Source: a virus
IMG/VR virus record: IMGVR_UViG_3300037524_000649
DNA: 64,000 nucleotides
Strand: one strand, 5' to 3'
Part shown: piece by piece, positions 5,591 through 52,485 of the stretch
Position numbering within the stretch: the stretch's first letter is position 1
Layout: every line of letters starts with the position of its first letter
Translations under genes and position numbers: made by a program
Notes under the pieces: model-generated
The model's database searches: none
The model's input: only the letters and a program-made list of their open reading frames with translations
Told to the model about the DNA's origin: nothing

Positions 5591-5618
5591 GTTATGCCCC
5601 GGACGCGCCCGGGGCTGC
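5591..5618 (-). promoter_or_regulatory. GCAGCCCC-box promoter (box-N14-CATAAC)
   Basis: Intergenic, downstream of a terminator and upstream of the polymerase operon. The last base of the -10 hexamer deviates from consensus. Confidence 0.55.
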
Positions 5619-8275: not shown

Positions 8276-8302
8276 GCAGCCCCATGCGTTGATAGAGAAA
8301 GT
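8276..8302 (+). promoter_or_regulatory. GCAGCCCC-box promoter (box-N13-GAAAGT); predicted +1 is the A of the terS ATG (leaderless)
   Basis: The -10 T at 8302 places +1 at 8309. There is no SD upstream of the ATG. Confidence 0.65.
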
Positions 8303-8308
8303 GCCGGT

Positions 8309-9082
8309 ATGGCAAAACCACCGAAGGCCCCTCCGGTCCAGGGCTCGCAGCTCGCGTTCAACGACGCCAAGCAGACCACTGCCGACTGCTTCGCAAACAT
8401 GACCGAGAAGCAGCGGCTCTATTGCGAAGCCCGACTAACCGGGCTCGTCCCACTGCGCGCCGCACTGCGTGCCGGGCTCGCGGACCCGGAAGTTAATGCC
8501 TACCGGATGGAGCGCCACCCGAAGGTGCAAGCGGCGCTCGCGGCAGCCCGGCGCATGGTCGTCGAGAAGTTCGACGTATCCCGCGAGGACGTGCTCCGAG
8601 GCATGTTCGACGCCGTTCAGGCGAGTGGGAACGCTACCGAGCTGGTAGCCGCGTGGCGTGAGATTGGCCGAATCGTTGGTGCCTACGAGGCCCTCAAGGT
8701 CGACGTGATGCACCGCATCGAGGACGTGACCCTCGACAAGCTCCAGGCGCTGTCTACTAAGGAGTTGATCGAGCTGTCGGCCGGGAAGGACTTCATCGTC
8801 GAGGCTGAGGACGACGCCTATGGCGATGAGTACGACAAGATCCGCGAGGCCCTTGGCAGACCGGCCTACCCACGCAAGCCCAGGAAGAATGATGGCGACG
8901 ACGGACGAGACGGAGACGACGGAGACGACGGAGACGCCGACGGATACGACGACGACGACGGAATCGACCCGGCCGACTATCCGAGCGAACCCGCAGAAAG
9001 GGGAGTGGAAGTACACGGAGGACCATGTCCCGACCCCGAAGACGTGCCGGGTGTGCGGGACGACCTACCCGCGGTCGGGTAA
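8309..9082 (+). CDS. terS: terminase small subunit with acidic DGDDG tail
   Basis: N-terminal HTH-like segment (TEKQRLYCEARLTG...AALRAG), positioned before terL. Confidence 0.8.
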   Translation: MAKPPKAPPVQGSQLAFNDAKQTTADCFANMTEKQRLYCEARLTGLVPLRAALRAGLADPEVNAYRMERHPKVQAALAAARRMVVEKFDVSREDVLRGMFDAVQASGNATELVAAWREIGRIVGAYEALKVDVMHRIEDVTLDKLQALSTKELIELSAGKDFIVEAEDDAYGDEYDKIREALGRPAYPRKPRKNDGDDGRDGDDGDDGDADGYDDDDGIDPADYPSEPAERGVEVHGGPCPDPEDVPGVRDDLPAVG

Positions 9083-11834
9083 GCCGTACTTCAATGGCGG
9101 CCGTATGGCGGTGTGCAACACCTGCGTCTCCGCGCGCTCTGGGGACGTCATGGCAGCCAAGCTGGAAGAGCGTCGGATCAAGAAGCTGGCCTCCGAAGAG
9201 CGCAAGAAGCTGAAGCAGGAAGCCCGGCTGCAGCGCAAGCGCGACCTCCGCAAGCGCAAGGTGCGCGAGGCGGAGAAGGCAAAGGAGGTTGCGAAGGAAG
9301 ACCGCCGTGCTTCGTTCCAAGTGGCTCGTGGCCGGCGCCGGGTGAATCTCGTAAAGCGCGAGTTGGCGGCGCGGACGTTGGCGCAGCGGCATCTCATGGC
9401 GTTCGTGATGCGACAGCACCGCGGCTACCAGGCCGGGCTGTTCCACCGCGACGTGTGCCGCCGGCTGGACAAGTTCGCCAAGGACGTGATCGCCGGCAAG
9501 AGCCCGCGGCTGATCCTCCAGGCGCCGCCACGCCACGGCAAACAGATCGCGGACGACACCCCGGTGCTGACCACAAAGGGGTGGACCACGCACGGAGCGC
9601 TGCGTACTGGGGACGAGGTGTTTGGCCCCGATGGCGTGCCCACGCAAGTCGTGGCCGTGGGCGAGCCAGCCCTCCAGAACTGCGAAGTGGAGTTCACGGA
9701 CGGGTCGGTTGTCCGTACCCACGAGAACCACGAGTGGACGGTCTACGATCGGTGTGGAGATTCGGGGTGGAGGACCGTCGAGACCAAATACCTGGAGCAG
9801 CGGACCCTGTGGTCGGGGCCGCGCGGCAAACGGGGCGGCAGGGCCGCCCTGCAGTTGCCACACGTTCACGCCCTTCAGTTGCCCGAGGCCGCCCTGCCGC
9901 TGGATCCCTACGTGCTCGGAGTTTGGCTCGGCGACGGGCGCTCCTGCAACGCCGACTTTTGCTGGCACGCCGACGACGCAGCCGTGGCCGTGGCGGTCAA
10001 CGAGGCGCAGCCGATAACTCGGCGCTGGGTACATCGCACCACGGGCGTGAACTACGGGTTCATGGCGGGGGTAAAGCCCATTTTGCGGCGGCTGGGGGTG
10101 CTGAACGCCAAGCACGTTCCGGCAGAGTACGAGCTGTCGAGCATCGAGCAGCGGTTGGCGCTTCTCGCTGGCCTGATCGATACCGACGGGCACGTAGAGC
10201 TTGGTACTCAGCGCGTGCGCATAGCGACCGTCAGCGACGTGCTGGCCAGCGGGATCGAGCGCCTGGTCCGCAGTCTCGGGTGGCGAGCCAACCGTTACAC
10301 GCAGCAGCCGGCGCTGTCGACCAGTGGCGTGCAGGGGCGGCATCCGGTGCACTACGTGTCATTTACGCCAGATCGCGCCATACCGACACGCCTGCCGCGC
10401 AAGCGCATCGTTGCCCGTGAGAGTTCACAGCGTCGCCTCGGCATCGCGGCGGTGCGCCGCGGTGCGCCGGCCATCGGTCGGTGCATTCAGGTCGCGCGCG
10501 CAGACGGGCTGTATCTGGTGGGGGAGCAGCTGATACCCACCCACAACTCGCTCCTGGCAAGCGTGTACTTTCCGGCGTGGTTCCTCGGCAACAACCCCGA
10601 CAAGGAGATCATCGCCACCAGTTACTCCGGCTCGCTGGCCCTGACGTTCAGCCGCAAGGTGCGCGAGCTGCTGCGCGAGCAGACGTATCAGGCGGTCTTC
10701 CCGCGCGCCGTACTGGACAAGGACAACCAGAACGCCGAGGGGTGGATGACGACCCGCAAGGGCGGGTACGTGCCGGCAGGTGTCGGCGGCGCCATCACCG
10801 GCAAGGGCGCCCACATCCTGGTGATCGACGACCCGCTGAAGAACGCCGAGGACGCGTCCTCGACGCTGATCAAGGACAGCATCTGGGAGTGGTACACGTC
10901 GACCGCGTACACGCGCTTGGCACCGGGTGGCGGGGTCATCGTCATTGCGACCCGGTGGGCTGAGGACGACCTCTCCGGTCGGCTCGAAGCACTGAGCGAG
11001 AGTGGCGAGGGGGACAAGTTCCAGATCATTAGATACCCCGCCATCGCCACCGAGGACGAGCCGTACCGCAAGGCTGGCGAGGCGCTGCACCCCGAGCGCT
11101 ACTCCGTCGAGCAGCTGCGCAAGATCGAGCGGGCCGTCGGCCCGTCGGTGTGGCAGGCGCTGTACCAGCAGCAGCCCATGCCCGACACGGGCAGCTACTT
11201 CACCAGGGACATGTTCCGCTGGTACACGGGCGCGGCGCCCGGCCGGCTGGCCGTCTACGCCGGGTGGGACCTGGCAATCGGCAAGGGGGACCGCAACGAC
11301 TTCACGGCCGGTGTGGTGGTCGGCATCGACCAGGACGACGGCATGTGGGTGCTCGACGTGCGGCACGGGCGGTGGGACAGCTTCGAGATCGTGGAGCAGA
11401 TGCTGGACGTCCAGCGCGTGTGGAAGCCCGAGGTCCACGGCATCGAGAAGAGTCAGGTGTCCATGGCCATCGGCCCGTACCTTGAGCAGCGCATGTACGA
11501 GGACAAGGCGTATGAGATGGTGGTGCGAGACTTGCCTCCGGGCCGTCGTGACAAGGAGCTGCGGGCACGCGCGATCCAGGGTCGCATGCGCCAGGGTCGT
11601 GTGCAGTTCCCCAAGGACAAGCACTGGGCCGACGGGATCTACGCTGAGATGCTCAAGTTCCCCAACGGGGCACACGACGACCGTGTCGATGCACTGGCTT
11701 GGATCGGACTGATGCTCCAGGAGATGAACGTGCCGCTGGAGCCGCGCGAGCCGGAGTACGCCAAGGGCTCGTGGAAAGAGAAGCTGGAGAAGCTCGTCAA
11801 CAACCCAACCAAGCGCGGCTCGATGGCCGCGTAG
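8892..11834 (+). CDS. terL: terminase large subunit precursor with intein and an N-terminal CxxC..CxxC extension
   Basis: Walker A PPRHGK|S split by the intein, Walker B LVIDD, RNase H-like nuclease (GWDLA, HDDRVDA). Start is uncertain (8820, 8889, 8892 or later). Confidence 0.92.
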   Translation: MATTDETETTETTETPTDTTTTTESTRPTIRANPQKGEWKYTEDHVPTPKTCRVCGTTYPRSGKPYFNGGRMAVCNTCVSARSGDVMAAKLEERRIKKLASEERKKLKQEARLQRKRDLRKRKVREAEKAKEVAKEDRRASFQVARGRRRVNLVKRELAARTLAQRHLMAFVMRQHRGYQAGLFHRDVCRRLDKFAKDVIAGKSPRLILQAPPRHGKQIADDTPVLTTKGWTTHGALRTGDEVFGPDGVPTQVVAVGEPALQNCEVEFTDGSVVRTHENHEWTVYDRCGDSGWRTVETKYLEQRTLWSGPRGKRGGRAALQLPHVHALQLPEAALPLDPYVLGVWLGDGRSCNADFCWHADDAAVAVAVNEAQPITRRWVHRTTGVNYGFMAGVKPILRRLGVLNAKHVPAEYELSSIEQRLALLAGLIDTDGHVELGTQRVRIATVSDVLASGIERLVRSLGWRANRYTQQPALSTSGVQGRHPVHYVSFTPDRAIPTRLPRKRIVARESSQRRLGIAAVRRGAPAIGRCIQVARADGLYLVGEQLIPTHNSLLASVYFPAWFLGNNPDKEIIATSYSGSLALTFSRKVRELLREQTYQAVFPRAVLDKDNQNAEGWMTTRKGGYVPAGVGGAITGKGAHILVIDDPLKNAEDASSTLIKDSIWEWYTSTAYTRLAPGGGVIVIATRWAEDDLSGRLEALSESGEGDKFQIIRYPAIATEDEPYRKAGEALHPERYSVEQLRKIERAVGPSVWQALYQQQPMPDTGSYFTRDMFRWYTGAAPGRLAVYAGWDLAIGKGDRNDFTAGVVVGIDQDDGMWVLDVRHGRWDSFEIVEQMLDVQRVWKPEVHGIEKSQVSMAIGPYLEQRMYEDKAYEMVVRDLPPGRRDKELRARAIQGRMRQGRVQFPKDKHWADGIYAEMLKFPNGAHDDRVDALAWIGLMLQEMNVPLEPREPEYAKGSWKEKLEKLVNNPTKRGSMAA
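9543..10547 (+). mobile_element. class 3 intein (Gln1, WCT motif) with LAGLIDADG homing endonuclease, 335 aa
   Basis: Starts QIADDTPV and ends IPTHN|S. Block B THENHEW, block F GRCIQV, LAGLIDADG motifs VLGVWLGDG and LLAGLIDTDG. Confidence 0.92.
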
Positions 11835-39377: not shown

Positions 39378-39601
39378 ACTTGGTCGCGTGGCTCCCGGGC
39401 ACTTGGCGCGCGGGGGCTTGGCGCGACGGGGCCTGGCTAGCGCAGCCCGATGAGCCGCAGCCCATCACGCGGTTTACGCTCTCGGCGGGCGGCTTCGAGC
39501 GACGTGTTGCGGAGTTGCGTCGGGCGGCGTTGGAGCGGGACGACGAAGACTTGTTGGTGATTCTCCGGGCAGTGCTGGAGTCAGGAGTCATGGATGGCTA
39601 G
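39374..39601 (+). CDS. small hypothetical protein (WxxGxW repeats)
   Basis: GTGA overlap. Confidence 0.55.
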   Translation: MNLVAWLPGTWRAGAWRDGAWLAQPDEPQPITRFTLSAGGFERRVAELRRAALERDDEDLLVILRAVLESGVMDG

Positions 39602-42600
39602 GTACGACGAGTGCTTGGGTAAGCTGGGCGACAAGGCGCAGTACCTTGAGACTGACCTGATCAAGTCGCTGGTCGATAAGTTCGGCGAGGCTGGCATGAA
39701 CAGCCGCGTCGCTCATCGTTCTGCCATCGAGCACATCCTGTCGGGCATCGACGAGGACCTCGGGCGCATCAAGACGCAGGCGCAGGAGTTCCTCGCACCG
39801 AGTGCTGAGCGCCAAGCGGCTGGTGGCCTGGCTACCGCAGCGCCCGCGGAGTCCACTGAGCCCGCAGCACCGAGTGCTGCGTCCCCCGCACCGGTTGCCA
39901 ATCCGAATGCCGTTCGTGAAGAGCGCGTGCGGCGCGTGCTGCGCCAGGCTCAGCTCTCAGCACTCCGTACTCAGCGCCAGGAGGAAGGGCCGCCGGCGCT
40001 GACCGACGAAGAGATCGATCGTCAGTCTGCTGGGATGGCGCCGACCGAGGACGCCGCGCCGGCTGCCGACGAGGGCATGGACAAGATCCCGCACTCTAAG
40101 GAAGAGCGCGCGGATGCGTGGAAGCAGCTGAGTGTGTTGCGCAAGCGCTTGAGCGAGGCAGAGGCAGCTGCTGCCAAAGAGGGGCGCGCGCTGTCGGTGA
40201 AAGACCGTGAGTTGGTCCACCACATCGTCCGCCTGCAGACGGTCGCGCACAGTGACAAGCCCATCGCCTGGCTCAAGGGCATGGTCACCAAGAAGGTGGA
40301 GAAGGCGAACGGGTACCTGAAGGCTTCGGAAGGCAACGGCAACTCCTGGGATGCTAGAGACCGCAGGCAAGCGGAGTCCCTGCGCTCCCTTGCGTACCTG
40401 ATCATGGAAGAAGCGCGCGGCTTCGCTGGCGTGATCAAGAAGCGCACTGGGGAGGTCGTGCCCACCGCTTGGTCTTCCGAGCGTCGTCCGGCGTCGTCCC
40501 GCGAAGCGGACGCGATGATCACGGCGCAGGCCGAGCAGGAGGGGGCGCGAACCGCGAACCAGCGCCCCAATCCGGTGTTTGCCGCCCGCGGCGAAGACGC
40601 TTACCGATGGGATGTGTTGCTTACTCGGCTGGATGACTTGCACAGATTGTGGGACATCCAGATCCCACGAGGTCACGGCGGCGGTCAGAAGTCGTACGAA
40701 ACCATCGCAAAGCACCTCGATGAGTATGACCAAATCCTCGCAGAAGAGCTGCCAGGGATAATACAGCAGCTTGAAGAGAGCGGTACTGGGACGGCCCGCG
40801 ATAAGCGGGCGCTTGAGGAAGCGAAGCTCGCCGTGCGGCGAGATCCTGAGTTTCATCGTCGGCGCGACCCACATAGGTATGACGCTAATATCCGGCGGGG
40901 AGACGAGATACGGCAGTACGCACGGCAGCAGCAAGCCGCTTCAGTAACCTCCGGTCAGCCCTCCGTCGCGCAGGACGGCACCGTCGCTGAGCCTGAGCAA
41001 GACATCCAGGCAGCGATGCAGGCGGTGCTTGACGGCCGCAAGCCCGCAGCGTACGACGCCACGGGCAAAGCCAAAGCGCTGAAGGGGCTCGTCACTGTCA
41101 AGGTCGATGGGGCGAAGTACTTCTACAAGGCCGGCGGTCCGTTCAAGCGCAACGACATCCTCCGGCTGCACGCCGAGGGCAAGCAGGCCGAGATCCTCGG
41201 TTACGAGCAGAACAAGGACGAAGTCCGCGACCCGGACAACTCGCCTGTCGTCAGCGCCATCGACGAGACGGGTGCGCACGTCAGCGATCAGCTCGTCGAC
41301 CCCGAGCGCGTTGAGGACGCTGCTGCGTCTGCGCAGGAGCAGGCGGGCGAGGGCGGTTCCGTTGAAGTCAGTACAGCGGATGAAGCTATTCGCCAGCGGC
41401 TTGCCCGCATGTCTGCGGAGGAGCTGGCTACCCCCGCGGTAGGGCGCTCTGGTCCCGTCACCGTTCAGGGTCCCTCGGTCGTAGCAGACCTAGAAGACGC
41501 ACCGCTCCGTGTTGGCAATGCTTACAGCGTGCTTGTGGTGCAGCCCAACCCTGATTACATCGTCTTTCTGCTCCGTAATGCGGCAGGGAAGGAAGCCCTT
41601 CTTGCCGGAAAGCCATCAAAAGACGGCGGCTACCGTTGGGATCTTGGCCCAGCCGAGAGAAGCAAGACCGGTGGGTTCCAGTCGGCGGGGGTGAGTCGCA
41701 ACATCTCGTCAGACCGGCTTGCGGAGCTTCTCGGTCCCGAGTTTGGCCCCAGGTTAGCCAACTTGGAAGAGACGGCTAAAGACCTTGAGGACATGCAGCG
41801 GGGCATCCTTAGTCTGGTGTCCCCCAATTTAGCAGCGCACTACGATGCTGCTGCGAATGACTTCGTCGAGCAAGTAGACCTCCGTCTTTACTCTCGTGGG
41901 TCGCTTGAACCTAAGAGGCTAGCTGCGTGGGCGGATCTTCGAGATCGTGCGAACTCCGTGCCCCCCGACGATGCGCTGGTAGACCAGGGGAATACGCTGA
42001 GTACCGGGCAGCGGGGCGCAGCTGTCGAACCTTCACAGGAGACTACCGATGAAGGGCAAGGGCAAGAAGAAGGGCGGGGGCGGCAAGAAGCGCTGCTAGC
42101 CGATGGGGCCGTGGGAGACCTCGCCGCGTGGCGCGAGCACGGCGAGGCTCTCCTGCGGTTGTATCACAACTACAAAGACCAGCCGGTGTCGGAGCTGGCT
42201 AAGCGCTTTGCGGATTCCACCAAAGAAATCCTCCGAAAAGTATTCCCCGGTGCTAAGAGCTTCGCACAGCGTATTGGGCTACTCAAGGCGCTGTACGACG
42301 TTCAGTTCGAGCAGGATGAACAGGGCCTGGACGCCGCTGTAAATGACCAGCAGACGACGACCGAGCGCGAAGCGCCGGCACCAGTCACTGTGCGGCTCAA
42401 CAAGAAGCGCGCGCGTGGCGGCGAGGCTCCGCTGACGACGAGCGAAGTTCGTGGCGTGGTCGCCGCGCTTCGCCAGCTCATCCCCGGCGTTACGCTGACC
42501 GAACTGCCGAATGGCGATTGGGACATCACCATTCAGGTGACGAACGACGAGCTGCAGCTGTTCCCGCAGAAGTCGGTGACGCAGTCCGTAGCACCGAGTG

Positions 42601-45600
42601 CTGGGCTCGACGCGCAGGATCTTCAGAAGGCGCTCGACGCGCTCGTGAACTCCCTGGCGACCGGCTTCAATAAGACGGAGAGTCGGCTGGAGGTCAAGGC
42701 GCGCGAGAAGTCCACCGAGGACAACTACACCGTCGCGCGGTTCAACCTGCCGGGCCTGGTCAACTTCGGCCGACAGCTGCTTGGGTACTACAAGCCGGCG
42801 GATCAGGCGACGCAGAAGCACGTCAGCGAAGCACTCGGTGCTGCGCTCGGGTTCATCAGCGAGAAGTACGTGCTGCCGGTCAAGAAGGCTTTGGCTGCTG
42901 GTAAGGCGCAGCAGGAGCAGCAGAGTACTACGCCGTCGATCAACAAGTCTCGCAACGCCACCGAGCTGGACATCCCCGACGACACCATCGTCTACACGAC
43001 GAAGAACGGCGAGGGCACGCTGACGTGGGACGACGTGCGCCAAGAGTCGCGCGGCTCCACCCAGCTCGACATGAACGAGGAGATCGAGGCCAAGGAGCCC
43101 GGTCTGCTGGCCAAGATCAAGGAGACCAACTCCGAGCGCGCTCGCATTGGTGCCTGGCTCGATGAGCTGAAGGCCGTCGAGAATCGCACGGCGCAGCAGA
43201 ACACCGAGCGCTCGATGCTGCTCGCTAAGATCAAGAAGCTCAAGGCCGAGAGCGAGGATCTGTACGCGCGGAAGAAAGCGGCGCGCAAAGCGGTCAACCG
43301 TGAGTGGATAAATCGCCGCGGGAAGGACGGCGAGGTAATTCGGGGCAAGCAGCGTACGGCAACAGAAGTTGACGACGTCGTACTGGAGAAGTACCAAGCA
43401 CTCAGTGCTGCGGTCGACGCGGCAGTCGCGGAGCAGCGCGCCGCCGAGGTTGCCGTAACGCGCGAGGAAGATGGCTTCGGAAGTGAGCCGAAGACGGTCG
43501 AGCGGCTGGCCAAGGCCAAGATGGCAGTGCAGCGCGCGGAGAGGGCGCTTGAGACCTATGTCGAGAAGATCGGCCTAGAGCGCTACGCGACCGAGACTGT
43601 CAGCGTCGACGGCACGATCGAAAACGAATTGATGACGCTTGCTGAGGAGCGCGGCATCCTGCACCAGATGGAAGCAGGCGTCGATCACATCGAGAACATG
43701 GAGGAAGACACCCAGGCGGAGCGCGAAGACGCCAAGCAGTCCGCCCTGGCGCGCGGAGCGCGCAACAAGAAGCCGCTGACTGAGGCGGAGAAGAAGGCGC
43801 GTGAGCGTGTGCAGGGGTACTTCGACGGCGAGCAAGTCGAGGCACTCGGTGGGGAGTCGATCAAGACGTTGGCCGGCGTAGTCCGCGGCGTGCTCAAGAC
43901 GCTCGGGCTGCAGACGCGGATTCGGCTGGTCGACGAGGCCGGGCTCGACCAACTCATCGCTACGTACAAGGACGTGGTCGACGCGAGCGAAGGCACGCAC
44001 GAGTCAGCCCAGTGGGCTCACGACCTGTTGCTCAGGATGCGCACCAAGGGCACTGGGTTCGGCTACTTCACTGCCATGGACATCATGTCGACTATGGAAG
44101 ACCGCATGCCGGTCATCTATATCAGCGACACGATAAAGATGGACAAGGGTGGCAAGCCGCGCGATATGCGCGACATGCGCAACAAGCTGAAGGTCCTAGC
44201 GCACGAGCTTGGGCACCTGATCGAGTTCACGTATCTGGACCAGGTGCGCAAGATGGCCAAGCACCAGGATCCGAAGGTGGCCGCAGAGGCCAAGGAGATG
44301 CTCGGCGGTCTTCAGGAGGCGTGGCTGCAGTCCGGGCAAAACCCAGAGGCGTTCTCTGAGTGGATGGCCAATCAGTTCGTTGCGTACGTCGCCAGCAGGG
44401 ATAGCAAGCTGCGCCGCACGTTCGAGGACGCGGGCAAGGTGACTGACAACAAGGGCGTGCGTGCGTTCCTTGAAGGACTGTACGACAAGATCCAGGAGCT
44501 GTGGGAAGTTCTGACGAAGAAGTACCGCCTGAGCCAGACGTATGACGACTTCATCACTGGCGTCATCGCGGAGATGCGTGGACGTAGCGAGGGGCGCACC
44601 GTCACGGGCGAGTACGGACGGCGCTTTGCGCGGGTAGCCGCGGAGTTCACGACCAGTCCGTACATGGAGCACTACAAGAACGCGCCATCGCGGAAAGAGA
44701 TGCTGGCGTTCACCCCGCCGATGCAGCGTCGCGCACGCTCGCTCATCGACTACGTGAAGCGCAACCCGCACGTCGTCAACGCGCGTGGCTGGGCCAGCGC
44801 CATGCACCGCTTCGGCACGCAGAGCATGGACAGCTATCTGCGCTCTCTCGGCCTGGATGACATCGCGGACATCTTCAACCACAGGCCAGGCGTAGACCGG
44901 CCGGGCGGCGTCGAGCCGATCGATCGCGAGCTGCGCCGGAGCTATGCCGAGTGGCACCGCAAGGCGAACACCCTGCTCGGGCGGTTCGCGGAGAAGAAGT
45001 GGTACCACGGCGCGCTCGGTTTCAAGGACGGTACGCTGAATACCGAGTCGGCGGTCTACAAGGACGTCGTCAGGGCACTGATCGGGCAGTACGATCCGCC
45101 GGCGGGCCCCGCTCGTGAAGCGGTGATGGAGATCCGCGCGTACTTCGAGGAGTTGTACAAGTACTTCCAGCAGATGGGCCTTGAGTTCCCGCACCGCAAG
45201 AACTTCTTCCCGACGATGTACCGGTCGAGCGAAGTCATCAACCGTGAGCGGGAGTTCATCCAGACGCTGCTCGATTTCGGGCTCTCCCGCAAGCAGGCGT
45301 TCGACATGTTCCGCACCGTCACGCACTCGGACGGTTCGATGATCTCTCCCGGGATCGGGTTCGGGCACATGAAGCACCGGCAGCTCAACCGCCAGGAGCT
45401 GAAGGTGCTGCACGACAAGGGATTCCTCGAAAGCGATCTGTCCACTGTGATGCTGCGCTACGCAGACCGCGGCATTCACAAGGCAATCGTGCAGCGGCAC
45501 TTCGGCAAAGAAGTGCTGCAGGACGACGGCTCCACGACCATCGAGCCGTTGGGCAAGCTCATGGAGCGCCTGAACAAGGCCAGGGCCAACGGCGACCTCA

Positions 45601-46796
45601 CGGCGTCCGAGCACGAGCGGGTGATGAACGTGATCATCCCCGGCCTGTTCGGGCAGCTGGGCGTCGACATGGACCCGCGCTGGAAGCGCTTCGAGGCGTT
45701 CGCTATCACCCTGGAGAACTTCCGCCTGCTCGCCGGCGCCACGCTGTCGTCTCTGCCCGACATCGCAGGCGTCTTTGTCCGCGGCGACTGGGACGCGCTC
45801 CAGTCTGGCATGCGCAAGATGCTCAGCAAGATGGATCGCGCGCAGATGCGCGAGCTGGCCGAGCGCCTCGGCGTGATCCGCGACGACTACACCACGCATG
45901 CGTTCAACGACGGGGTCGTCGACCAGTACATGGGAAGCGGATTCCGGCGGTGGAACGAGGCGTTCTTCCGCGCGATCGGCATGCACCACTGGACCAACTT
46001 CACGCGCATCGCGGCGTTGGCGTCCGCGGTCGACTTCATCAAGGCGAAGAGCGCCGCAGCGAAGACGAGTGACGCAGAGGCCAAGCAGCTGATGACGGAG
46101 CTGGGGCTCACCCCCGAGCAGGTGGACCGGTGGCTCGCGGACGGAGCACCGCCCCCGGCCGAGTGGGGCACCGAGTCGTTCGGCGAACATCGTGCTGTGT
46201 ACTCAGCGCTGAGCCAGTTCGTGGACGAGGCCATCATGCGGCCCAACGCATCCATTCGCCCCTGGTGGGGCAACGACCAGCGGCTGGCGGTGTTCTTCCA
46301 CCTCAAGAGCTTCATCTGGAACTTCCAGGAGGTCATGCTTCGGCGCCTGTGGTCCCAGGTCAAGACCGCCAAGGGCATGCACAAGGTCGCCCCCGTGGTT
46401 GCCTTCGCGGTTCCCTACATGCTGCTGGCTGCGCTCGGCTACGAGATCCGCCGCTGGCTGTCCTGGGGCGGCGAGCCGCCGAAGGGCAAGGAGGGCGGGG
46501 ACTACTGGTTCGAGGTGCTGCAGCGCTCCGGCGGCCTTGGCGTGTTCCAGCTGATGGTCGATTCGGAGGAGGCTGCGGACCGCGGCAAGCTCTGGCTGCT
46601 GGCGCCGCTTGGCCCCACGGTTGGGCATCTGGAGGAGTTCATCACGCAGCCGTTCTACGACTCGTTCCCGCGGTCTATTCCCCTGGTGGCCCAGAGCCCA
46701 GCACTCAAGGCTGCGCTGCAGAACACGTTTGAGGACGTCGGACTGTGGGATTTGCCAGCGGGTAAGCGGACCTACAACGACAAGCTGCTTCGATAG
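39594..46796 (+). CDS. giant (2400 aa) internal virion / polyvalent-type protein with HExxH zincin motif
   Basis: Uninterrupted ORF, LAHELGH at 44202-44216, helical C-terminal region with hydrophobic segments. Confidence 0.8.
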   Translation: MARYDECLGKLGDKAQYLETDLIKSLVDKFGEAGMNSRVAHRSAIEHILSGIDEDLGRIKTQAQEFLAPSAERQAAGGLATAAPAESTEPAAPSAASPAPVANPNAVREERVRRVLRQAQLSALRTQRQEEGPPALTDEEIDRQSAGMAPTEDAAPAADEGMDKIPHSKEERADAWKQLSVLRKRLSEAEAAAAKEGRALSVKDRELVHHIVRLQTVAHSDKPIAWLKGMVTKKVEKANGYLKASEGNGNSWDARDRRQAESLRSLAYLIMEEARGFAGVIKKRTGEVVPTAWSSERRPASSREADAMITAQAEQEGARTANQRPNPVFAARGEDAYRWDVLLTRLDDLHRLWDIQIPRGHGGGQKSYETIAKHLDEYDQILAEELPGIIQQLEESGTGTARDKRALEEAKLAVRRDPEFHRRRDPHRYDANIRRGDEIRQYARQQQAASVTSGQPSVAQDGTVAEPEQDIQAAMQAVLDGRKPAAYDATGKAKALKGLVTVKVDGAKYFYKAGGPFKRNDILRLHAEGKQAEILGYEQNKDEVRDPDNSPVVSAIDETGAHVSDQLVDPERVEDAAASAQEQAGEGGSVEVSTADEAIRQRLARMSAEELATPAVGRSGPVTVQGPSVVADLEDAPLRVGNAYSVLVVQPNPDYIVFLLRNAAGKEALLAGKPSKDGGYRWDLGPAERSKTGGFQSAGVSRNISSDRLAELLGPEFGPRLANLEETAKDLEDMQRGILSLVSPNLAAHYDAAANDFVEQVDLRLYSRGSLEPKRLAAWADLRDRANSVPPDDALVDQGNTLSTGQRGAAVEPSQETTDEGQGQEEGRGRQEALLADGAVGDLAAWREHGEALLRLYHNYKDQPVSELAKRFADSTKEILRKVFPGAKSFAQRIGLLKALYDVQFEQDEQGLDAAVNDQQTTTEREAPAPVTVRLNKKRARGGEAPLTTSEVRGVVAALRQLIPGVTLTELPNGDWDITIQVTNDELQLFPQKSVTQSVAPSAGLDAQDLQKALDALVNSLATGFNKTESRLEVKAREKSTEDNYTVARFNLPGLVNFGRQLLGYYKPADQATQKHVSEALGAALGFISEKYVLPVKKALAAGKAQQEQQSTTPSINKSRNATELDIPDDTIVYTTKNGEGTLTWDDVRQESRGSTQLDMNEEIEAKEPGLLAKIKETNSERARIGAWLDELKAVENRTAQQNTERSMLLAKIKKLKAESEDLYARKKAARKAVNREWINRRGKDGEVIRGKQRTATEVDDVVLEKYQALSAAVDAAVAEQRAAEVAVTREEDGFGSEPKTVERLAKAKMAVQRAERALETYVEKIGLERYATETVSVDGTIENELMTLAEERGILHQMEAGVDHIENMEEDTQAEREDAKQSALARGARNKKPLTEAEKKARERVQGYFDGEQVEALGGESIKTLAGVVRGVLKTLGLQTRIRLVDEAGLDQLIATYKDVVDASEGTHESAQWAHDLLLRMRTKGTGFGYFTAMDIMSTMEDRMPVIYISDTIKMDKGGKPRDMRDMRNKLKVLAHELGHLIEFTYLDQVRKMAKHQDPKVAAEAKEMLGGLQEAWLQSGQNPEAFSEWMANQFVAYVASRDSKLRRTFEDAGKVTDNKGVRAFLEGLYDKIQELWEVLTKKYRLSQTYDDFITGVIAEMRGRSEGRTVTGEYGRRFARVAAEFTTSPYMEHYKNAPSRKEMLAFTPPMQRRARSLIDYVKRNPHVVNARGWASAMHRFGTQSMDSYLRSLGLDDIADIFNHRPGVDRPGGVEPIDRELRRSYAEWHRKANTLLGRFAEKKWYHGALGFKDGTLNTESAVYKDVVRALIGQYDPPAGPAREAVMEIRAYFEELYKYFQQMGLEFPHRKNFFPTMYRSSEVINREREFIQTLLDFGLSRKQAFDMFRTVTHSDGSMISPGIGFGHMKHRQLNRQELKVLHDKGFLESDLSTVMLRYADRGIHKAIVQRHFGKEVLQDDGSTTIEPLGKLMERLNKARANGDLTASEHERVMNVIIPGLFGQLGVDMDPRWKRFEAFAITLENFRLLAGATLSSLPDIAGVFVRGDWDALQSGMRKMLSKMDRAQMRELAERLGVIRDDYTTHAFNDGVVDQYMGSGFRRWNEAFFRAIGMHHWTNFTRIAALASAVDFIKAKSAAAKTSDAEAKQLMTELGLTPEQVDRWLADGAPPPAEWGTESFGEHRAVYSALSQFVDEAIMRPNASIRPWWGNDQRLAVFFHLKSFIWNFQEVMLRRLWSQVKTAKGMHKVAPVVAFAVPYMLLAALGYEIRRWLSWGGEPPKGKEGGDYWFEVLQRSGGLGVFQLMVDSEEAADRGKLWLLAPLGPTVGHLEEFITQPFYDSFPRSIPLVAQSPALKAALQNTFEDVGLWDLPAGKRTYNDKLLR

Positions 46797-50937: not shown

Positions 50938-51251
50938 GTGTTATCCGTGTCGGTGAAAAAAGCGGGCTGCGGGATCGTGACCATTGGGCCGTTGGCGGTT
51001 ATGACGCGCCCCTGGCGTCCGCCTTCGCCCCAGCCACGCATCCATTTGATTCCGTGGCTACGCAGGTGTGCCGCGAGCAGCGTCAGCAGCTCTTCGGTAA
51101 GTACCAAGCGCTGAGTGGGCGTGATCCAGGCGGTTTCGTCCGAGTCGAAGAGGATTTCCACGTTGCCCAAAATGTGGGCACGCCCTGACGGCAGCCGCGT
51201 CGCCACGGCCAGCTCTTGGCGGAGGGGGAGAAGCTCCAGGGATTCAGCCAT
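50934..51251 (-). CDS. hypothetical protein (possible GNAT-like remnant, MRGWGEGGRQGR)
   Basis: ORF track. The ATG coincides with the predicted +1 of the upstream promoter. Confidence 0.65.
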   Translation of the reverse strand: MAESLELLPLRQELAVATRLPSGRAHILGNVEILFDSDETAWITPTQRLVLTEELLTLLAAHLRSHGIKWMRGWGEGGRQGRVITANGPMVTIPQPAFFTDTDNT

Positions 51252-51257
51252 TGGAGC

Positions 51258-51284
51258 ATGGTGCCGATGACGTGTTGGGGCTGC
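51258..51284 (-). promoter_or_regulatory. GCAGCCCC-box promoter (box-N13-CACCAT); predicted +1 is the ATG at 51251 (leaderless)
   Basis: Intergenic, canonical spacing onto the ATG. Confidence 0.65.
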
Positions 51285-51307: not shown

Positions 51308-51577
51308 TTAGTTTTGTCGCACGGTGAATTCTGGCCGGAGGCTGTCTTGGATGGAGTGAAGTAGGTTGTGAATCGAGTCGGTGTGGTGGGTTGATTTGCG
51401 GCGGATGGCGAAGCGCTGACGGGTCTTGGCGATGTACCAGCCCGTCAGCGCGTCTTCTAGGGTCTTGTGGTAGCTGAGATAGATTACTAATCCCTGTTTG
51501 TATACTCGTACCCGCCAGCGCTGCCGCGCCGCTTCGAAAAAGATGCCTTTCGGGAGGATCTTCGGCGACTCATCCAT
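51308..51577 (-). CDS. stand-alone AP2-like DNA-binding protein
   Basis: LPKGIFF...RWRVRVYKQG..IYLSYHKTLEDA matches the AP2 three-strand-plus-helix pattern. Confidence 0.7.
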   Translation of the reverse strand: MDESPKILPKGIFFEAARQRWRVRVYKQGLVIYLSYHKTLEDALTGWYIAKTRQRFAIRRKSTHHTDSIHNLLHSIQDSLRPEFTVRQN

Positions 51578-51589
51578 TCCGGTTCCTCC

Positions 51590-52141
51590 TTAGAGCCTGG
51601 TGCAGGACCGAGCAACAGAGCGAGAAGAACGATGGTGATGACTATCAGCAACAAGACATCCATTTTGTATGGCCTCAAGTGTCATGGTTTTGTGCTGTTG
51701 CCAGAGCGGGCTGGGGAGATTCAGCGCGACCATTGCCAAGTCGAGCATGGTTAGGCGGGCACCAGCGAGGAAGGGGCCGACACGGACGAGGTCGGCCGTT
51801 AGTGCGTGGAGGACTGGGGGCTTTGTTTCGACTTGGTTGTCGAAGAGCGTGGAGATGATTTGCTCGGTTGCCATGCGCACCATGGCGCGGCGTTCGGGTG
51901 TGTCGAGACAGAGCGGTGGTTCGGGGTACTGGTCTTCGAGGTATGCGAGGATGTGGTGTATGCCGTAGATCGACAGGCCGCGGTCGACGATCGCGGGTTT
52001 CTTGGGTGTGCGGAATGCGGCGAAGGCGCCTGTGACTTTGCGGCCTTTGGCTTGGCAGACGAGTTCGAGGAAGTTGAACGTGGCTTCGTCACTGGTTGCA
52101 ATGACGATGGGGCCGAGGACATCGTTTGCTGCGTGATCCAT
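51590..52141 (-). CDS. degenerate GST-fold protein, SspA-like
   Basis: PAIVDRGLSIY...ILAYLEDQYPEPPL...PERRAMVR and PFLAGARLTMLD resemble GST N- and C-domains. Confidence 0.7.
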   Translation of the reverse strand: MDHAANDVLGPIVIATSDEATFNFLELVCQAKGRKVTGAFAAFRTPKKPAIVDRGLSIYGIHHILAYLEDQYPEPPLCLDTPERRAMVRMATEQIISTLFDNQVETKPPVLHALTADLVRVGPFLAGARLTMLDLAMVALNLPSPLWQQHKTMTLEAIQNGCLVADSHHHRSSRSVARSCTRL

Positions 52142-52485
52142 GAAACAAGCTCCGGCTTGGATAGTAGAACGGGTTGGTTTGTCTTCTCGTTCCAGCTTCC
52201 ATGCGTGAGGACGCAGGACCCCATGGGCGATGCCACGACCACTGCCACGGCACGACCTTCGGCGTAGCGCTCGTTTAGCCAGTTGCGCTGCTTGGTCGAC
52301 AGCCTGGGCTTTACAGCCTTTGGCATTTTGGGGACCCACTTGTATTCGACCCAGAGATCCGCAGCCGGGCCGGAGTACCAGGCGTCGGGGACGCCTATGG
52401 CGAAGCGGGCTGAGATCTTCCAAACGTAAACTCCGACCTTACGAAGGGCAGAGTTTACTGAGCTTGTGAAGGTGGCCTCGCGCAC
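51799..52485 (-). CDS. VRR-NUC (PD-(D/E)XK) nuclease / Holliday junction resolvase-like, with long low-complexity tail
   Basis: GVPD, LWVEYK and LSTKQRNWL. The homologous part ends near aa 120 and the rest overlaps the GST-like gene. Confidence 0.8.
   Translation of the reverse strand: MREATFTSSVNSALRKVGVYVWKISARFAIGVPDAWYSGPAADLWVEYKWVPKMPKAVKPRLSTKQRNWLNERYAEGRAVAVVVASPMGSCVLTHGSWNEKTNQPVLLSKPELVSWITQQTMSSAPSSLQPVTKPRSTSSNSSAKPKAAKSQAPSPHSAHPRNPRSSTAACRSTAYTTSSHTSKTSTPNHRSVSTHPNAAPWCAWQPSKSSPRSSTTKSKQSPQSSTH

Follow-up and report, generated by a model that had tools for sequence, protein, structure and literature searches.

SspA-type proteins, which have a GST fold, are RNA polymerase factors of the bacterial host, and phage P1 exploits that of its host. 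They are carried by beta- and gammaproteobacteria. A -10 element combined with an activator box, without a -35 element, is the architecture of the T4 middle promoters, which use MotA and AsiA, and of the P1 late promoters, which use Lpa together with host SspA. The dependence of P1 on host SspA has been documented (PMC7515715), and in E. coli SspA the residues R65, R82, F83, P84, H85, P86 and Y92 contact region 4 of sigma70 and the zinc-binding domain (ZBD) of beta', with the His of the PHP motif inserting into sigma70 region 4 (PMC7515715). The SspA homodimer is formed via alpha3/alpha4, through R73, E77, Y78, E81, R96, G97, R100 and L101 (PMC7515715). P1 Lpa-SspA, Francisella MglA-SspA-PigR (PMC4382096), and T4 MotA-AsiA each bring together a small DNA-binding activator and an adaptor for RNA polymerase or sigma70 region 4, at promoters with a -10 element and no -35.

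Here we analysed a 64,000-nt stretch of viral DNA (IMG/VR record IMGVR_UViG_3300037524_000649; hereafter the window), in which the gene for a small SspA-like protein, termed mini-GST, lies side by side with the gene for an AP2-like protein, and in which a GCAGCCCC box appears to replace the -35 element. The pair can be likened to the Lpa, PigR, MotA, and AsiA systems as putative functional analogues; no homology to any of these four proteins was found. However, P1 takes its SspA from the host, whereas the SspA-like protein described here is encoded by the phage. No phage-encoded SspA homologue was described in the literature that we searched.

The phage and its mini-GST gene

The mini-GST gene (P0001) occupies 51590..52141 on the minus strand and has 183 codons, for a protein of 183 aa, with its ATG at 52141. 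A Shine-Dalgarno sequence, GGAG (52150..52153, minus strand), can be read from the sequence 8 nt 5' of this ATG, and the N-terminus, MDHAAND..., is called alike in the homologues P0004, P0006, and P0011. Residues 1 to ~160 (52141 to ~51662) form a conserved and ordered core. The remaining ~24 residues (~160-183) are a non-conserved tail with low model confidence, produced by read-on that overlaps a small hydrophobic ORF; the homologues stop at ~150-160 aa.

This small ORF (51487-51663, minus strand) lies between the mini-GST gene and the AP2-like gene, overlaps both, and encodes a hydrophobic helix together with a GPAP-x-x-KEE-x-x-W motif that is conserved; it may be a membrane protein. We saw it in two GC-rich relatives only, the window and the locus L001. 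The mini-GST gene of the window runs 24 codons into it, and its counterpart in L001 (728-883, plus strand) starts at the mini-GST stop (ATGA).

The phage genome is roughly 65 kb in size, and mini-GST is also encoded, as the same protein, on a contig of 64,996 bases. The window encodes rIIA/rIIB, a DNA polymerase, a primase, an SNF2 helicase, exonucleases, and a dCMP deaminase, as well as a large terminase, a portal protein, and a virion protein of 2400 aa, and the AT skew divides minus-strand early and replication arms from a plus-strand structural arm. The first-pass annotation had called mini-GST phage-encoded, which is borne out by the rIIA/rIIB, DNA polymerase, primase, helicase, terminase, and portal genes. 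As judged by the portal protein, which is 34-38% identical, the hosts of the nearest cultured phages are Pseudomonas, Acidovorax, Aeromonas, Ralstonia, and Burkholderia, all beta- or gammaproteobacteria, and the hosts of this phage are likely to be proteobacteria as well.

Two of the large genes have features of their own. The terminase ORF (8820-11834, plus strand, 1004 aa) matches terminases in two separated blocks, and its residues 217-372 give a DnaC/helicase-loader-like match, which together suggest an insertion, either an intein or a fused domain. The giant ORF at 39594-46796 (plus strand, 2400 aa) had no Pfam match, and its one match, at the C-terminus, was to a 'virion structural protein' PHROG; the ORF is of a size reminiscent of the giant virion proteins known from Bcep22-like and N4-like podoviruses. 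A Pfam search of the large proteins of the window, the 2400-aa protein included, found no phage RNA polymerase; a divergent enzyme is possible.

Overlap with an upstream nuclease gene

The mini-GST gene sits in a replication/recombination module together with genes for the SNF2 helicase, a PD-(D/E)xK exonuclease, and a Gp157-like protein. Directly upstream is an ORF for a VRR-NUC/PD-(D/E)xK-like nuclease (51799..52485, minus strand; phrog_35651 at E 1e-16, and phrog_2165), whose domain spans ~52485-52120 and whose PD...ExK residues are invariant in the family alignment (A4). No stop codon closes the nuclease ORF where its domain ends; the ORF stays open, in a different frame, for 343 nt of the mini-GST gene, and the read-on gives a Ser/Thr/Pro/Lys-rich tail of ~105 aa. 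The ORF is likewise open through the mini-GST gene in a 47%-identical relative (L001, 1-609), and the nuclease of other phages ends after 4-73 nt of the mini-GST gene. Overall, the nuclease gene overlaps the mini-GST start at nine of ten loci, by 4 to 343 nt, with a conserved junction that reads WITQQTM in one frame and MDHAAND in the other. This short ancestral overlap would account for the very conserved N-terminus of mini-GST.

An alternative frame that stays open for 343 nt arises by chance in 6% of the stretches sampled from the genes of this phage and in 7.5% of codon-resampled versions of the mini-GST gene, so the read-on of the nuclease is probably accidental. A frameshift fusion or functional overprinting of the two genes was rejected on the basis of this chance frequency (6-7.5%), the early stops in other phages, and the Shine-Dalgarno sequence and ATG that mini-GST has of its own.

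The same junction would fit a mini-GST that serves the nuclease, or the recombination/replication module at large, as an accessory or regulatory subunit: the overlapping genes would ensure production in a fixed ratio, and mini-GST would modulate or target the nuclease. We consider this unlikely. The conservation of the overlap and the helicase, exonuclease, and Gp157-like neighbours speak for it, but one locus (L089) has the mini-GST and AP2-like pair and no nuclease, and gene overlap in phages does not by itself indicate a complex. Overlaps between adjacent phage genes are common, and we know of no nuclease-GST complex.

A pared-down GST fold

An exhaustive search of 1.84 billion representative proteins returned 34 relatives of mini-GST, almost all 140-180 aa long, and 26 of them, 140-183 aa in length, were used for the family profile and alignment (A1). 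The family is phage-restricted, and it is absent as such from Pfam, PHROGs, BFVD, and the GenBank phages. P0001 matched no Pfam family, and across the family each GST_N or GST_C model is touched by only 2-4 of the 26 members. BFVD had no matching viral structure, none of the 50,697 GenBank phage records gave a tblastn match to P0001, to the L003 homologue, or to P0010, and megablast of the mini-GST region found no relative among cultured phages. The sole PHROG touched is phrog_9684 (5/26 members, best E 3.9e-6; P0001 at E 1.2e-3), which is also phage-encoded and GST-like and carries no functional annotation; its profile of 215 positions has full GST length, unlike mini-GST, and the matches to it are weak and partial.

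The AF2 model of mini-GST, built with the A1 alignment as input, has a pLDDT of 84.7 and a pTM of 0.81. Foldseek matched it to GSTs at a probability of 1.0, with the SspA-like 4dej at the top (E 4e-7), and VIA alignments gave Z of 13.3-14.7 over ~150 residues at an rmsd of ~3 A, with the GST classes tied. The model, the two structure searches, and the family profile agree on a thioredoxin-like N-domain followed by an all-helical C-domain, as in the GST superfamily. In order, the modelled protein has an N-terminal helix (residues 3-9), b1, a1, a short b2, and then b3-b4-a3 directly, with no alpha2; a conserved linker, Y-P-x-P-x-L, follows a3 and leads into four helices that end at about residue 159. 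The cis-Pro of the loop that precedes beta3, P49, is present in 18/26 members. At helix 6 an N-capping box is formed by S/T131 (22/26) and D134 (26/26).

Several claims that had been made from the letters of this gene could be followed up at this level. The proposed GST fold is upheld by the profile, the AF2 model, Foldseek, and VIA, and the structure search against SspA that had been suggested as a check did return that fold, with an SspA-like protein first. The VDR signature said to be kept is V52-D53-R54, and the alleged C-domain capping motif is T131-x-x-D134 within FLAGARLTMLD, that is, the helix-6 N-capping box with its invariant D134.

Loss of the glutathione site

In the phmmer alignment, G60-I61 of P0001 stand opposite the Glu-Ser of SspA, and the replacement extends to the family: the glutathione-site (G-site) Glu has become Gly in 25/26 members, and the Ser has become hydrophobic. 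No residue is conserved at positions 16-20, the N-terminus of alpha1, and no catalytic Ser, Cys, or Tyr is conserved across the 26 members, of which five contain no Cys at all. The glutathione site of other GSTs is thus missing alpha2, the Glu-Ser pair, and the catalytic Ser/Cys/Tyr. The first-pass annotation had read the gene as a degenerate, non-enzymatic GST whose Glu-Ser pair was replaced by GI; the GI is confirmed, and with the pair lost in 25/26 members, alpha2 absent, the catalytic residues unconserved, and five members Cys-free, mini-GST is most likely non-enzymatic. It appears to be an intact GST fold stripped of its chemistry, with a core of ~150 aa.

Loss of Glu-Ser is not peculiar to the phage family, since cellular SspAs with Tyr-Gly-Thr have also lost the pair. 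Tyr-Gly-Thr stands where Glu-Ser is expected in a group of metagenomic cellular SspAs (L007, L009, L011, L012, L039, and L045) that are ~204 aa long and have the PHP motif.

Could mini-GST nevertheless be an active, unusual zeta-like GST or isomerase with a non-canonical thiol or substrate site? The best profile scores of the family are to maleylacetoacetate isomerases, and the MaiA model TIGR01262 is weakly matched by 23/26 members. However, P0001 reaches 19.8 bits on that model against a cut-off of 171.05 and has no SSC-type motif, and the family lacks Glu-Ser and alpha2 and includes members free of Cys, which makes an enzymatic function very improbable.

Kinship with SspA and GST-zeta

Against the PDB, the family profile scored highest with GST-zeta/MAAI (E 1.4e-15 to 6e-15; 60.6 bits for zeta), followed by the SspA-like 4dej (E 8.9e-14) and the SspAs (E 1e-12 to 5e-10; 54.7-43 bits), with no other GST class above 36 bits. 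MglA chains (E 1.4e-5) came under both SspA and zeta, and FzlA (5nr1) was matched at E 1.9e-7. With P0001 alone, phmmer aligned residues 48-95 to SspA 3mdk (E 8.7e-4; also 3lyp, 1yy7, and 7c97), and reached MglA 5u51 at E 2.4e-3 and GST-zeta/MAAI 2cz2 at E 2.8e-3. The alignment with a segment of SspA that had first been drawn by eye was in this way recovered, through phmmer over residues 48-95 and through the family profile (E 1.4e-15 to 5e-10).

Among NCBIfam models, the SspA model NF007016 was the best match for P0001 alone, at 23.5 bits against a cut-off of 314 (E 3e-5, residues 48-96 only). Full-length relatives that carry a name in a search of 5.8 billion proteins were all 'stringent starvation protein A / RNA polymerase-associated protein', in a search whose candidates were picked by shared 5-residue words and which is therefore biased toward SspA. 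A metagenome scan with YL(E/D)(E/D)(R/K)YP(E/H)P recovered almost only full-length cellular SspAs, useful as an outgroup, and not mini-GSTs.

SspA (E. coli 7C97/6WMU, Y. pestis 1YY7, SspA-like IL0419 4DEJ) and mini-GST share a GST fold without transferase chemistry and a common pattern, cis-Pro-x-x-VDR ... YL(E/D)(E/D)(R/K)(Y/F)P-x-P-x-L ... P-x-x-R(A/G)-x-x-R, and several residues of the alpha3/alpha4 dimer helices of SspA are conserved in the mini-GST family. They differ in that the mini-GST core has ~150 aa, whereas SspA has ~210, with alpha2 deleted and the C-domain shortened; the family, at 140-183 aa, stays below the ~205-215 aa of SspAs. They also differ in their genetic setting, mini-GST being phage-encoded with an AP2-like gene as its partner, whereas that of SspA is sspB. 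The zeta/MaiA proteins (1FW1, 2CZ2, 8E8P) have the highest profile scores (E 1e-15), within a match limited to profile positions 22-110, and the top VIA Z of 14.7, a tied value. Their stretch YLEE-x-x-P-x-P-x-LLP-x-x-P-x-x-RA-x-VRM is nearly identical in mini-GST, which nevertheless lacks the Ser-Ser-Cys catalytic motif, Glu-Ser, and alpha2.

At the positions that in SspA contact RNA polymerase (R65, R82, F83, P84, H85, P86, and Y92), P0001 has R54, Q71, Y72, P73, E74, P75, and T81, and so departs from the PHP motif and from the contact residues at R82, F83, and Y92. In the family, Arg or Lys stands at the R82 position in 18/26 members, an aromatic residue at F83 in 21/26, and Pro at P84 and P86 in 25/26 and 26/26, respectively. 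The His of PHP is found in only 6/26 members, so that the motif is variable in the family, and the equivalent of Tyr92 in none of the 26. P73-E74-P75 does stand opposite PHP, as the change from PHP to PEP noted earlier would have it. By contrast, the dimer-interface residues are some of the most strongly conserved in the family: I58 (25/26), Y/F67 (24/26), E/D70 (24/26), R/K85 (24/26), a small residue at 86 (25/26), and R89 (19/26). The equivalents of SspA Y78, E81, R96, G97, and R100 are thus kept in 19-25 of the 26 members, whereas those of R73 and E77 are unconserved. Because the conserved residues are shared with GST-zeta, the conservation of the linker and of alpha3/alpha4 may reflect a constraint of the fold rather than an SspA-like function.

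Membership in either known family was ruled out, SspA by 23.5 bits against 314 and PEP in place of PHP, MaiA by 19.8 bits against 171.05 and the lack of a conserved Ser/Cys before alpha1. Alpha2 is missing, Glu-Ser is lost, and the catalytic Ser/Cys is unconserved, and mini-GST therefore belongs to neither. Of the initial statement that the protein resembles SspA, what stands is that SspA is among the closest relatives by profile and fold; the protein is not a member of SspA, and zeta is equally near by Z. The caution that kinship with GST-zeta/MaiA might be closer was well placed, with zeta at 60.6 bits, SspA at 54.7-43, and structural Z tied. The nearest cellular relatives of the mini-GST family appear, by profile and by model, to be SspA and GST-zeta.

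The dimer helices also bear on a reading in which mini-GST is a dominant-negative mimic of SspA that works apart from the AP2-like protein. It would either pair with host SspA in a heterodimer of the MglA type or compete for the SspA site on RNA polymerase, and would thereby switch off SspA-dependent host responses such as stress, sigma-S rewiring, and CRISPR adaptation. MglA-SspA heterodimers have been described and provide a precedent (PMC1891329, PMC4382096), and SspA has been reported to promote CRISPR adaptation (PMC11879090). The conserved dimer-helix residues and the probable proteobacterial hosts agree with such a mimic, but the same residues are conserved in GST-zeta and the obligate pairing with an AP2-like gene is left unexplained, and we give this reading little credence.

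GST folds are versatile binders, and mini-GST might instead bind another host target or a small ligand, for example FtsZ (as FzlA does), a translation factor, or a nucleotide or redox metabolite. FzlA is weakly matched, both by the profile search above and by the NCBIfam model NF050814, which is touched by 12/26 members and on which the score is 15.4 bits against a cut-off of 300; a nucleotide ligand would agree with the cluster downstream of mini-GST, which holds a dGTP diphosphohydrolase-like gene, the dCMP deaminase, and an NrdD fragment. Yet FzlA and the other classes score far under SspA and zeta, the G-site is destroyed with no conserved Cys or catalytic residue, and the AP2-like pairing again finds no explanation. 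We judge such a role to be improbable.

An invariable AP2-like neighbour

Directly 3' of the mini-GST gene lies a gene (51308..51577, minus strand) for a predicted small AP2-like DNA-binding protein of 89 aa. The mini-GST gene was followed immediately by the AP2-like gene at all ten loci examined (the window, L001, L003, L004, and L085-L090), three of which were reached via the AP2-like protein alone. The order of the locus is SNF2 helicase, Gp157-like protein, a protein of ~220 aa, VRR-NUC-like nuclease of ~129 aa, mini-GST, and the AP2-like protein of 70-106 aa; in L089 the nuclease is absent and the pair is kept. Some carriers of the pair encode integrases, and the pair is therefore not tied to one lifestyle.

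The AP2-like proteins share the motif G-[IL]-[YFW]-x-E-x-x-R-x-RWRVRLY, beyond which a variable linker leads to a C-terminal helix that is conserved (alignments A3 and A5). The Pfam AP2 family (PF00847) is recorded for five homologues; the protein of the window has no Pfam match itself. Its AF2 model (pLDDT 89.9) shows three strands and a helix, strand-strand-strand-helix, plus the C-terminal helix. In Foldseek its best matches were the AP2 domains of TEM1, WRI1, and ERF1, at a probability of 0.9 and weak E values of 0.07-0.7, and the weak matches comprised plant and Plasmodium AP2 domains and the DNA-binding domain of lambda Int. The family profile reached the TEM1 AP2 domain in the PDB at E 0.3.

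When two copies of mini-GST were co-folded with the AP2-like protein, the ipSAE was 0.43 compared with 0.20 for the best control, a weak pass that, by its own calibration, would more often be wrong than right unless the prior is high. The runs agreed in at least 37% of their contacts, and the pLDDT of the partner was at least 59. In the calibration, 58 of 80 solved complexes and two of 110 mismatched pairs came up to that mark; passes with values of 0.60 or less came from only seven of the 80 solved complexes and from both of the mismatched pairs that passed. Since mini-GST always adjoins an AP2-type gene, the two proteins may constitute a new phage device that steers host transcription.

Promoters with a box in place of the -35 element

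The GCAGCCCC box occurs 16 times in the window, compared with 4.2 expected. At 13 of the 16 sites, against a background of 6%, it is followed after 13-14 nt by a -10-like hexamer, nAnnnT, in which the two fixed letters are the two most conserved positions of the sigma70 -10 hexamer. This spacing puts the box at about -34 to -27, the place of a -35 element. An unbiased scan of 7-mers returned CAGCCCC as the sole outlier (15/21, p 4.7e-14). Examples of the box are found at 8276, 12211, 16469, 27298, and 34098 on the plus strand and at 5618, 51284, 59555, and 63955 on the minus strand; 14 of the 16 are oriented along local transcription, about nine are intergenic, and several come right after terminator-like hairpins. 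One of them separates the AP2-like gene from the gene that follows, whose ATG is at 51251; there the box (51284-51277), 13 nt, and the hexamer CACCAT together span 51258..51284 on the minus strand.

A relative known from a 1.67-kb fragment (L097), with an AP2-like protein 53% identical to that of the window, has two intergenic boxes, each with a -10-like hexamer, and one of them is placed as is that at 51284, right after the AP2-like gene. In a distant phage that bears the family (G001), no comparable combination of a box and a -10 stood out among the k-mers, and the link between the pair and the promoters is therefore lineage-specific and circumstantial. On this pattern of sites, the phage appears to have a class of promoters that lack a -35 element and consist of a box and, downstream of it, a -10-like hexamer.

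Discussion

We tentatively propose that mini-GST is an SspA-like adaptor that acts with the AP2-like DNA binder on the RNA polymerase of the host, a reading that we regard as possible rather than probable. The AP2-like protein would recognise phage DNA, plausibly at the GCAGCCCC box found in place of the -35 element. Mini-GST would dimerise, probably through its alpha3/alpha4 helices as SspA does, and would connect the AP2-like protein with either the sigma70 RNA polymerase or the SspA of the host. We infer, with the same reserve, that mini-GST and the AP2-like protein bind each other, that the host partner is RNA polymerase or SspA, and that the box is read by the AP2-like protein.

The first-pass annotation had put forward two hypotheses on function, an RNA polymerase regulator and the dominant-negative SspA mimic, and both keep that status. 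An adaptor of the kind proposed here is favoured by the SspA-type residues of the dimer helices, by the obligate AP2-like neighbour, and by promoters without a -35 element. Several equivalents of the RNA polymerase contacts of SspA are conserved, co-folding lends weak support, and the likely hosts belong to groups that carry SspA. Against it, the His of PHP that is diagnostic of sigma70 binding is mostly lost, being Glu here, Tyr92 is never conserved, and the GST classes, all tied at Z 13.3-14.7, cannot be told apart by structure. In addition, the site in a replication module and the overlap with a nuclease gene indicate a role in DNA metabolism equally well.

A more specific form of this proposal is that the two proteins are a self-contained phage pair for the appropriation of sigma, with the AP2-type protein on GCAGCCCC near -30 and mini-GST on RNA polymerase or SspA. 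Mini-GST would bind either sigma70 region 4 together with the beta' zinc-binding domain or host SspA, and would recruit or remodel the host RNA polymerase. In this specific form we find the proposal rather unlikely. If it holds, the phage would itself supply a version of the co-activator, SspA, for which P1 relies on its host.

What appears to be new, judging from the genes, is a reduced GST/SspA-like architecture and its genomic partnership with an AP2-like gene. From a biological perspective, the two-gene unit and the box promoters without a -35 element are a testable candidate for a new way of redirecting the sigma70 polymerase of the host. Even without a role in transcription, the family would represent a GST fold that has been pared down to ~150 aa, without alpha2, and that is still under selection. 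Should the pair indeed act as an adaptor and a DNA binder on host RNA polymerase, this would be the first function for the stand-alone AP2 proteins of prokaryotes and viruses.
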